Shown: piece by piece, positions 710 through 5,213 of the stretch
How the letters are laid out: each line of letters opens with the position of its first letter
Position numbering within the stretch: position 1 is the first letter of the stretch
DNA from: a virus
Direction: 5' to 3' (one strand)
Virus record (IMG/VR): IMGVR_UViG_3300025889_000092
Location: 1-64,000 of that record
Length of the DNA stretch: 64,000 bases
The notes under the pieces: model-generated
Database searches by the model: none
Told to the model about the DNA's origin: nothing
Seen by the model: only the letters and a program-made list of their open reading frames with translations
Translations under genes and position numbers: made by a program

Positions 710-794
710 GAGAATCACCTGTAATTTGATAAACAAATGGAGGGAAAGAATCCCTCAGTGAGCCTACAAAGCTCAGGGAGAGAATCTAGCTCGA

Positions 795-824
795 TGATCT
801 AATTTGATCCAATGTGATCTAATT
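795..824. repeat. 3 x 10-bp direct repeat TGATCYAATK
   Basis: TGATCTAATT TGATCCAATG TGATCTAATT. Confidence 0.7.
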
Positions 825-849
825 AAGAACAACCAAGCGGACAAGGTAC

Positions 850-886
850 AAACTAAAAGGCCCCTCACAGACAGAAACCGTGAGAG
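850..886 (-). terminator. terminator-like hairpin near the 3' end of the leader
   Basis: Minus strand CTCTCACGG-7nt-CTGTGAGGG followed by GCCTTTTAGTTT. Confidence 0.4.
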
Positions 887-1297
887 AAAAAGTGAAACAA
901 TTTGGCAGGCATGTAGTTAGTTACAGTGCGCAGATTGGCCTCTGACGTATAACTGACCCAGCCATCGCACGGATCGGCGCCGTGGTGATAGGTCAGTGTC
1001 CAGAGTTTGCGTACCTGCACCATAGACAGATACGCTGGACAAAAAATCTGACACGTAACTAACTACAACCGGACCAGTTGGATTGTATTTAGTTGCAACC
1101 TGACGAGGGTTACTAACATTTAGCGTCACTGGTTTGCCTTAGTTACAGACAAGATACCCGCTGACAAGTAGTTAAGAGTGCTTATCCAATGGCCTACTTA
1201 GTTCGGCTGCATTGTCCTAGCTACTTGTGCAAACTATTTGAGAACAACAGTAAGTTGATTTCGTACTAACGTCGCCGCGTTCCTACTACACTTACAG

Positions 1298-1317
1298 CTA
1301 TTCTGTTGTCAAGGTTC
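1298..1317 (-). promoter_or_regulatory. cyanobacterial rrn boxA-like antitermination element
   Basis: GAACCTTGACAACAGAATAG, close to the picocyanobacterial ITS boxA (GAACCTTGACAACTGCATAG as recalled). Confidence 0.65.
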
Positions 1318-1459
1318 GTCAACCTAGAAGCCTTTACAGTTCCGGCGCTCGCGTTAGGTCACACCATGCCTGCCATTGCCTACACTTCAGGCGCTCCCTG
1401 GTGGGAGCCCCCTACCATCAGCGGCAGAGCGTGGGGACCTTTCGGCCGTCCCGGTTCCG

Positions 1460-1478
1460 TCTTCAGCTTTCGAGGTTC
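1460..1478 (-). promoter_or_regulatory. second, more degenerate boxA-like element
   Basis: GAACCTCGAAAGCTGAAGA directly after a 5' hairpin (ATCGATC-7nt-GATCGAT, 1480-1500). Confidence 0.45.
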
Positions 1479-1506
1479 AATCGATCGTTATTTGATCGAT
1501 GAGCAC

Positions 1507-1536
1507 AGCATCGCTCCGGATCGGTGCGAACGTCAA
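1507..1536 (-). promoter_or_regulatory. sigma70-type early promoter
   Basis: TTGACG-18nt-GATGCT; imperfect palindrome with TGTGTGCCAGTTG just upstream (1544-1568). Confidence 0.5.
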
Positions 1537-1959
1537 CCCCTTCCAGCCGGTCTCTCAACTGGCACACAATGGCATGGGGCTCACCTAGTTACAAGAACGA
1601 AACGCACGCGCCCGCGCAAATACCACGCGGCAGGCCCGCAAGTCAAGCTTTGAAATAAAACGTGATAGGTCATCCCCGCTAGAACAGATGTATTAATACA
1701 GCTTCACAATACTAAATGATACATTTAACATAACTTAATGATATTTAAGGGGCAAAGATTTACCCGCAGGATATAAACTTTCCTCCCCGACATTTCTTTT
1801 TTTTCCATAAGGAGCAATTCCGCCGCGCCCGGCGAGAAGTATTTGGTTTTGTAGCGGGAAAAATGGGATGAGAGTTTTGAGTACCAACATACTAACAGCC
1901 CTGACGAAAAAAATTTCGCCGCGTGGGCATAAGCCCTAAATGTTTTACTGGTTATATAT

Positions 1960-4356: not shown

Positions 4357-4692
4357 ATGAAAACCAAAGCCCCTGTTGAGCTCAAGTCTCGTCATCTACC
4401 GCTTTTTGCGCTCGCGTGGCAGTCTTGGAAGCTTTTAGACACTGGATCTCAGATCCTGATCAAAGGTTCCGTGCTTGCGCTTGCTTTTTTCCTTTGCGGC
4501 GTGGCCATTTCTAATGGACCGCTCGTAAACGAGGAGACTCGGATCCGAATGCGAGCCGAAGATGAGTGTATTGCGGAAGGTCTCAGCAACCTTGACAACG
4601 ATAGGTACAGTGTGTATCGCTTGTGTAAGGCCTATGCCCTGCGGTACGCAAGAGAAGCTGTGTCTCCTTCTGAGACAAAAATGATTTATTGA
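4357..4692 (+). CDS. hypothetical membrane protein
   Basis: Hydrophobic segment ILIKGSVLALAFFLCGVAI. Confidence 0.65.
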   Translation: MKTKAPVELKSRHLPLFALAWQSWKLLDTGSQILIKGSVLALAFFLCGVAISNGPLVNEETRIRMRAEDECIAEGLSNLDNDRYSVYRLCKAYALRYAREAVSPSETKMIY

Positions 4693-5036: not shown

Positions 5037-5112
5037 GCGCATCTAGCAATCTGGTGAATGCAGTCGACTCATAATCGACCTTAGGTGAGTTCAATTCTCG
5101 CGATGCGCACCA
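5037..5112 (+). tRNA. tRNA with CAT anticodon (elongator Met or Ile2), CCA encoded
   Basis: Acceptor GCGCATC/GATGCGC, anticodon arm GTCGA-CTCATAA-TCGAC, T arm GTGAG-TTCAATT-CTCGC, ACCA end; lacks initiator features. Confidence 0.92.
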
Positions 5113-5113
5113 C

Positions 5114-5197
5114 GCCTCTGTGACGGAATAGGTATACGTAACGCACTTAAAATGCGTCGCTCTTTAGGGCTTGCGAGTTCGAGTCTCGCCGGAGGCA
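5114..5197 (+). tRNA. tRNA-Leu(TAA)
   Basis: Acceptor GCCTCTG/CGGAGGC, anticodon arm ACGCA-CTTAAAA-TGCGT, long variable arm, T arm GCGAG-TTCGAGT-CTCGC. Confidence 0.95.
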
Positions 5198-5213
5198 CTT
5201 TTTATTAAAGACC

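Follow-up and report, generated by a model that had tools for sequence, protein, structure and literature searches.

A conserved early promoter heads a long non-coding leader

The IMG/VR virus record IMGVR_UViG_3300025889_000092 is 81.8 kilobases (kb) long; we analyzed its first 64 kb (64,000 nucleotides, nt; hereafter the window), where the genes include a large terminase, a lysozyme, a D5-type primase and two transfer RNAs (tRNAs). Our subject is the minus-strand leader that runs from 1500 to 710, between an early promoter and the first leftward early gene (Table 1). The closest cultured relative, Synechococcus phage S-EIV1 from an arctic lake, has a large terminase 53% identical to that of the window; judged by sequence, the phage is an S-EIV1 relative, and we infer a cyanobacterial host. 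Freshwater, estuary and sediment metagenome runs contain the same stretch.

A sequence-only reading of this DNA had proposed that an undescribed structured RNA is transcribed before the leftward early genes, behind a sigma70-like promoter. This view was borne out, in that no Rfam family matched, homologs showed covariation and the promoter in front is conserved. The promoter layout, TTGACN, 18 nt and nAnnnT, was found in 20 of 20 distinct homologous segments (three further loci, two on contigs too short and one mis-anchored, were left out of the count), the commonest −10 being TACCTT, and transcription would start near 1500. A consensus promoter scan of the window failed to list this promoter. 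Its 18-nt spacer (1513–1530, minus strand) is partly conserved, GCACCGATCC-like in many homologs, a hint that the promoter contains a regulatory site.

Directly downstream, a hairpin was predicted at the boxB-like site in all 20 homologs (−7.0 to −18.0 kcal/mol), with visibly different stem sequences; it begins ~6–7 nt past the −10 and ends 1–3 nt before the first of two boxA elements, boxA1. The boxB-type hairpin of boxA elements in ribosomal RNA (rRNA) operons (rrn) and nut sites is thereby predicted at boxA1 in 20/20 homologs, and no clear hairpin of this type could be defined in front of the second element, boxA2.

The leader is non-coding. Both strands of 740–1540 hold only short overlapping open reading frames (ORFs), the longest ORFs of 19 homologous leaders vary in place and length with none conserved across the set, and the sense strand of one of the leaders (L024) has zero ORFs of at least 30 amino acids; the earlier observation that ~750 nt lack a credible ORF therefore stands.

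Table 1 Features of the leader and its flanks, in window coordinates
Feature	Position	Strand	Detail
Early promoter, sigma70-type	1507–1536	minus	−35 TTGACG 1536–1531, 18-nt spacer, −10 GATGCT 1512–1507
boxB-like hairpin AUCGAUC/GAUCGAU	1480–1500	minus	1 nt ahead of boxA1
boxA1 GAACCUCGAAAG, leader type	1467–1478	minus	
Domain 1, long irregular rod	1321–1477	minus	RNAalifold and pair counts, 14 sequences
boxA2 GAACCUUGACAA	1317–1306	minus	followed by CAGAAUAG; whole stretch 1298–1317
Two variable hairpin modules	1304–1241 and 1232–1161	minus	predicted fold
Conserved stretch with hairpin 1152–1134 and two crossing helices	1095–1152	minus	pair counts
Domain D, three-way junction on a long closing stalk	912–1067	minus	model R1; stalk 1067–1055 with 924–912
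Core hairpin of domain D	997–1041	minus	UGUCCAG ... GCGUAUCUG, loop, CAGGUACGC ... CUGGACA
Covarying hairpin of domain D with conserved CGAUGGC	953–996	minus	9 of 13 pairs double-changed
Terminator-like hairpin with U-rich tail	851–887 (hairpin 887–861)	minus	window and nearest relatives only
Three GAUCA/GATCA repeats	819–815, 809–805, 799–795	minus	10-nt spacing; read from sequence
Two mutually exclusive hairpins	786–748 and 756–740	minus	
Shine-Dalgarno-like AGGUGA, start codon, first early gene	707–720	minus	AGGUGA 720–715; start codon 709–707

The leader recurs in related phages as exchangeable modules

Homologs were aligned from 11 viral loci (68–77% identity over most of 1950–700) and collected more widely with a search pattern, the core hairpin ending in UGCAGGUACGC, which is one island common to the window and its relatives. 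The pattern matched 28 stretches in viral contigs and 119 in metagenome contigs, and adding the metagenome loci to the viral ones gave 25 distinct full-length copies of domain D. All homologs were thus gathered via one fixed motif, the invariance of which is uninformative. The pattern also hit 50 loci in a prokaryote genome collection, which we took as chance: the domain D model, run on these 50 at E up to 0.01, fitted none. The domain D model found no second copy elsewhere in the phage record and none in four host loci, and it had zero matches in the whole S-EIV1 record at E up to 1; that record holds three one-mismatch matches to an 11-mer. Blastn with 700–2350 against the phage collection returned zero matches, as did a search of the viral contigs for the exact 19-mer of the domain D closing helix.

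The nearest relatives by first gene (L002 and L003, 93–94% protein identity) carry an equally long, ORF-free and GC-rich stretch that has only islands in common with the window; near-identical first genes behind different leaders indicate that the leader is exchanged as modules between close relatives. The leader of these two is largely unlike window 800–1950 and has three boxA copies. Another lineage (L026, L112) has the modules in the order promoter, core hairpin, boxA and CGAUGGC hairpin.

Two boxA elements match cyanobacterial rRNA signals

We compared both boxA elements with the rRNA operons of two cyanobacterial genomes (G194 and G170; 2.7 and 1.75 megabases). Upstream of their 16S genes, a hairpin precedes GAACCUGGACAAC, which resembles the boxA1 variants of the phages (homologs read GCACCUGGACAA, GAACCUGGACAA and similar); the GAACCTGGACAAC found there behind the hairpin is the boxA1 form of several homologs. 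In the spacer between tRNA-Ala and 23S rRNA, both genomes hold GAACCTTGACAACTGCAT, which matches boxA2 over 13 bases, and the GAACCUUGACAAC of boxA2, identical to this spacer, occurs in all 18 distinct homologs in which two boxA elements were found. In sequence, the phage boxA elements match those of the rRNA operons of these genomes, which stand in for the presumed host. According to one report, the conserved boxA of the cyanobacterial spacer reads GAACCTTGAAAA and precedes the D4 element CTGCATA (PMC8461337). Outside boxA, the phage leader resembles neither the stretch upstream of the host 16S nor the host spacer or 5S. Behind boxA1, where rrn signals have a GU-rich boxC, some homologs show by eye an AAGAG that also occurs in the host 16S-upstream stretch.

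Of the 201 cyanobacterial genomes searched, 71 contained an extended boxA pattern and none a reversed control pattern. A larger cyanobacterium with a genome of filamentous size (genome G140, L230 2037–2056, minus strand) has GAACCTTGACAACTGAATAG just before a long tRNA array, identical at 19 of 20 bases to phage 1317–1298, so that cyanobacteria also use boxA outside rRNA operons. At that site boxA and CTGAATAG stand directly before more than 20 tRNA genes.

The elements also keep company with the rest of the leader. Among the 57 compact-hairpin loci having at least 600 nt upstream, a sense-strand boxA was present at 38 and two or more at 31, compared with 3/57 for the antisense control and 1/36 for loose pattern matches. 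The start-to-start distance of the two elements was 117–179 nt in 19 homologs with two regular-expression matches, and 148–161 nt in 14 of them. A plus-strand boxA-like CAACCTTGACAA at 4587–4598 is left unclaimed; by eye it falls inside an ORF starting at ATG 4358 and may be chance. The two phage tRNA genes (5037–5198) begin ~440 nt downstream of it.

The transcript folds on one strand

The minus-strand fold of 740–1540 reached −289.9 kcal/mol (z −5.83, equalled by 0 of 20 shuffles), compared with z −2.56 for the plus strand. Per-part z-scores (200 shuffles each) were −6.0 minus and −4.2 plus for domain D (1075–905), −2.9 and −1.7 for 795–710, and −3.5 and −3.9 for 1500–1298; 1168–1072 and 905–790 were not significant. 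The sequence-only reading had noted that helix imperfections are mostly G-U on the minus strand, where the plus strand would have A-C. Counts across homologs agree: the helices of domain D have 65 G.U against 20 A.C, and those of domain 1 have 63 against 14. The domain D model scored 119–170 bits on the sense strand and 25–48 bits on the antisense strand, and the promoter and both boxA elements share one orientation.

Known families do not account for the fold. A gathering-score Rfam scan of the whole window returned only the two phage tRNAs; all 4227 models at E up to 10 on 600–2400, and E-value scans of 1290–1480 and of one relative (L030 800–985), gave only chance-level matches to small nucleolar and small RNAs, and five relatives scanned at E up to 1 gave nothing relevant. 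RNase P, 6S and Y RNA were considered as identities, and the absence of Rfam matches speaks against them.

RNA-library contigs cover parts of the region: those of two libraries (X22, X23) span 1510–1661 and then diverge from the window, and X24 covers 1164–1401, with 12 differences, and 749–788. Such libraries may hold DNA, the contigs give no transcript ends, and gaps in coverage carry no information.

Domain 1 and domain D show covariation

Double changes, affecting both sides of a pair, were found in four parts of the leader, namely domain 1, domain D, 1128–1095 and 786–748. Covariation exceeded shuffled and slid controls where it was counted (domain 1, domain D and 1128–1095), and that of 786–748 was seen in RNAalifold. 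For blocks with unrelated replacement hairpins, MAFFT followed by RNAalifold returned no structure, which reflects a limit of alignment and is not counter-evidence.

Domain 1 lies between the boxA elements. In 14 sequences, 95.7% of alignment cells were paired and 9 of 43 pairs had double-sided changes, with a covariation of 0.187 against 0.103 ± 0.009 in shuffles (0 of 500 reached it) and at most 0.061 when slid. Its outermost helix involves the signals themselves: boxA1 nucleotides 1477–1471 pair with 1327–1321, directly ahead of boxA2, and position 2 of boxA1 with the base before boxA2 reads C-G in 8 sequences and A-U in 6, with zero exceptions. Long helices flanking a structured RNA next to boxA, as in the leader–trailer arrangement, are thus present: three enclose domain 1, and the closing stalk does so for domain D. 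The conserved core holds CUGCC/GGCAG and GAUGGUAGGG, and the CUGCCG/UGGCAG helix proposed earlier is kept, invariant. The GGGAC/GUCCC hairpin of that proposal fell, as its 3′ strand (1403–1399) belongs instead to a covarying long-range helix with a strand ~45 nt downstream (commonest pairs C-G, G-C, G-C, G-C and C-G; 3 of 5 double-changed). The domain 1 core was also considered as a 5S rRNA relic and rejected: Rfam 5S did not match, and the alignment to G194 5S was matched by 107, 70 and 99 of 200 shuffles.

Domain D, represented by 25 distinct sequences, had 93.4% of cells paired and 13 of 41 pairs double-changed, with a covariation of 0.266 against 0.112 ± 0.009 in shuffles (0 of 500 reached it) and at most 0.083 when slid. 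The alignment was fitted to the model, which favors the structure; a MAFFT alignment recovered the same covarying pairs, but fewer. The 13-bp closing helix predicted earlier (912–924 with 1055–1067) is kept and mostly invariant, and covarying pairs extend it inward. Within it, the predicted CACGG/CCGUG and CUGACCUA/UGGGUCAG helices are those carrying the double changes of the CGAUGGC hairpin (Table 1). The UGUCCAG/CUGGACA and CGUAUCUG/CAGGUACG helices are present as read but lack covariation; the core hairpin that they form is sequence-invariant, partly since the search pattern required it.

Variable hairpins, crossing helices and the end of the leader

Between boxA2 and domain D, the fold predicted two hairpins within 1304–1161, as read earlier from sequence; relatives have other hairpins in their place. 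The two did not stand out in a fold of 1310–1160, where 22 of 200 shuffles equalled the energy (z −1.36). The conserved stretch that follows (1152–1095, 95.1% paired) contains two crossing helices, 1128–1124 with 1105–1101 (3 double-changed pairs) and 1113–1108 with 1100–1095 (2 double-changed pairs), which represent either alternative folds or a pseudoknot. No linker separates them, so a classical pseudoknot looks strained and alternative folds may apply. Of the helices read here from sequence, UGACG/CGUCA has double changes in 3 of 5 pairs, and UUGUCU/AGGCAA was found with one-sided changes only.

Past domain D, the 887–861 hairpin is not conserved as a terminator in other homologs. The GATC(A) triplets are kept in aligned homologs, and three GATC within 345 nt past the hairpin start occur at 25 of 68 compact-hairpin loci; they could be an echo of the 16S 3′ tail, Dam-type GATC sites or protein-binding sites. 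The repeats adjoin a UCUCUCC strand, and the 16S rRNA of a small cyanobacterium ends in GGATCACCTCCT.

Two mutually exclusive hairpins then precede the first gene. In the 786–748 hairpin, UCUCUC pairs with GAGGGA, and 6 of 15 pairs are double-changed in 23 sequences. In the 756–740 hairpin, the same GAGGGA pairs with UCCCUC; this 6-bp stem hardly varies and has a U-rich run behind it, a terminator-like arrangement. A hairpin covers the ribosome-binding site in most homologs. On a circular or permuted record, the minus-strand gene series past the leader would resume at the record end, where DNA polymerase A, MoxR/VWA proteins and a D5-type primase are encoded. The early products scanned included no recognizable N-like or other antiterminator protein.

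On the other side of the promoter, a possible second promoter near 1645 (TTGAC) is left unclaimed, as relatives of one type (L014) have an alternating purine–pyrimidine tract instead. Four relatives (L014, L019, L037 and L002) carry long tracts of this kind (GCGTGTG...) at the place of window 1600–1640 (minus strand), where the window has a shorter GC-rich tract; such tracts upstream of the promoter may be a supercoiling-sensitive or Z-DNA-prone element. Beyond, 1796–1920 (minus strand) is a conserved block containing a CGCC...GGCG hairpin and eight successive A that do not vary; in homologs the block comprises a terminator-like hairpin and a U-run.

An antitermination leader is the favored interpretation

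Taken together, we consider it reasonably likely that 1500–710 is a ~790-nt non-coding, folded leader of the leftward early or replication operon, transcribed by the host polymerase under Nus/boxA-type antitermination, and that the phage probably borrows the transcription machinery of host rRNA. Host RNA polymerase would start at the conserved sigma70-type promoter, and the leader would copy the order of a precursor rRNA (pre-rRNA): promoter, hairpin and boxA, stalk-closed RNA, boxA, variable hairpins, stalk-closed RNA. The helix from boxA1 to the strand before boxA2 would be the counterpart of the pre-rRNA leader–trailer helix. The two boxA RNAs would recruit host NusB–S10, NusA and NusG, turning the polymerase into an rrn-type, termination-resistant and fast elongation complex that could pass the terminator-like leader hairpins and continue through the early operon, which, if the record is a permuted circle, reaches DNA polymerase A and the D5-type primase via many small genes. 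The tethered complex may aid the closing of long-range helices, and RNase III could cut the stalks.

Several points weigh against this interpretation. Antitermination signals of T7 and lambda take tens of nucleotides. The conserved structure here spans ~600 nt, far beyond what antitermination needs, so the leader probably has a further role. Rho is not known from cyanobacteria, and the main benefit that rrn antitermination is known to bring Escherichia coli would then be missing; moreover, the terminator-like hairpins are weak, with a 6-bp stem at 756–740 and no conservation of 887–861. Folding energy separates the strands only modestly in 1500–1298 (z values above). The homologs are mutually related, so the shuffle controls overstate significance and are not probabilities, and the pattern that collected them fixes the core hairpin. 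Finally, boxA1 is base-paired in the final fold, whereas NusB–S10 is reported to bind single-stranded boxA (PMC2800207); binding would then have to occur during transcription, before the partner strand is made.

A further role might be the principal one: the leader could chiefly encode one or several stable non-coding RNAs (domain 1, domain D or both), which would be cut at their stalks as by RNase III and act in trans, e.g., by titrating host rRNA-maturation, Nus or ribosomal proteins, with boxA serving fast and abundant synthesis. We regard this as unlikely, if worth keeping in view. It would explain why two stalk-closed domains each have a boxA ahead, why the invariant motifs UGCAGGUACGC, CGAUGGC and GAUGGUAGGG lie within them, why leaders of other architecture reuse domain D and the core hairpin in another order, and why the leader is retained before unrelated first genes; the RNA-library contigs over 1164–1401 and 1510–1661 also fit, weakly, as such libraries may contain DNA. 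However, no conserved terminator follows domain D, the relatives with first genes 93–94% identical (L002, L003) carry a largely different leader, and no described RNA family matches.

A more specific form, which we hold to be improbable, is a miniature pre-rRNA decoy, in which two stalk-enclosed RNAs made first in infection would be freed in the manner of rRNAs to act in trans on host rRNA transcription, maturation or ribosome assembly, or on another host factor that reads the invariant UGCAGGUACGC hairpin. If true, such RNAs would be a new class of phage RNA and more than a leader.

Somewhat more doubtful still is a cis-acting sensor or attenuator of the early genes, in which a factor bound to the GAUCA repeats or the UCUCUC strand chooses between the 786–748 hairpin and the terminator-like 756–740. 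The two hairpins are indeed mutually exclusive, one covarying in 6 of 15 pairs and the other nearly invariant with a U-rich tail; the conserved GAUCA triplet lies directly upstream, and in most homologs a hairpin lies over the ribosome-binding site. This mechanism nevertheless accounts for only the last ~110 nt of the leader and has no known ligand or protein, and because the larger 786–748 hairpin is both the first to form and the more stable, the polymerase would read through by default.

That the conserved elements work as DNA (a replication origin, operator cluster or packaging site), with RNA structure as a by-product of inverted repeats, is highly improbable: although the core inverted repeat GCGTAYCTG ... 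CAGGTACGC is invariant and does not covary, three GATC sites are spaced at the 10-bp helical repeat and several contigs end in or near the region, G.U exceeds A.C 3- to 4.5-fold in the helices, compensatory G-C to A-U switches occur in long-range pairs 150 nt apart, the domain D model fits far better on one strand, the orientation of promoter and boxA is fixed, and contigs can be expected to break at conserved modules that co-occurring strains have in common.

Under the favored antitermination interpretation, the leader is a defined, conserved and testable case in cyanobacteria, whose control of transcription elongation has been little studied: two boxA types, matching the host 16S-upstream and spacer signals, are tied by a covarying helix. 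A search of the literature by title and abstract found no paper on boxA or a structured early leader in cyanophages. The conserved folded domains 1 and D and the helix from boxA1 to the strand before boxA2 are new for this phage lineage, and the two domains constitute new structured RNAs in dozens of freshwater and estuarine phage contigs. The leader offers a handle on cyanobacterial Nus factors, on the reason for long folded early leaders and on RNA action upon the host, and the boxA match helps to assign uncultured phages to picocyanobacterial hosts.

Comparison with known systems

GOLLD and ROOL are Rfam families of large ornate phage-associated RNAs. The leader resembles them in size class, phage location and a multi-domain fold with covariation. 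It departs from them in matching no covariance model, in an architecture of modules whose order changes among relatives, in its link to an mRNA and in its boxA signals. The earlier suggestion of a free-standing non-coding RNA of this class is unsupported rather than refuted, as no conserved terminator precedes the first gene and modules are swapped or re-ordered between close relatives.

The HK022 put RNA, ~65–70 nt with two stem-loops, acts directly on the polymerase without Nus factors or boxA. Like put, the leader would be an early RNA element making polymerase resistant to terminators; unlike put, known here by its general description only, it has explicit boxA signals, and no element in it was matched to put. 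An RNA-based processive antiterminator made first in infection, the other earlier suggestion, thus survives in kind, given two boxA elements matching host rRNA boxA and the first behind a boxB-like hairpin, but not in its put-like form: because the leader carries boxA signals, we assign it to the Nus type of rrn, lambda nut and T7.

Processive antitermination through boxA is textbook knowledge for lambda, which requires the N protein on boxB, and the signals of lambda and T7 are short. In the lambda nut sites as described, and in T7 in one report (PMC3709561), host boxA lies behind early promoters, those of T7 being early host-polymerase promoters. The leader would be alike in that a phage puts host boxA behind early host-polymerase promoters for processive antitermination; it differs in having two boxA elements within ~790 nt of conserved folded RNA, a cyanobacterial host and no recognized N-like protein.

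In rrn operons, one account describes boxB–boxA–boxC assembling the antitermination complex and flanking sequences forming leader–trailer helices (PMC10250234). The RNAs enclosed in the phage leader, unlike those of rrn, are ~130–155 nt long and match no Rfam rRNA, and the transcript continues into protein genes. As in bacterial rrn, however, a hairpin and then boxA stand right behind the putative promoter, a second boxA downstream shares 13 nt with the spacer boxA of small cyanobacterial genomes, a long helix links the strand by the first boxA to the strand before the second, and a second stalk-closed structure follows.

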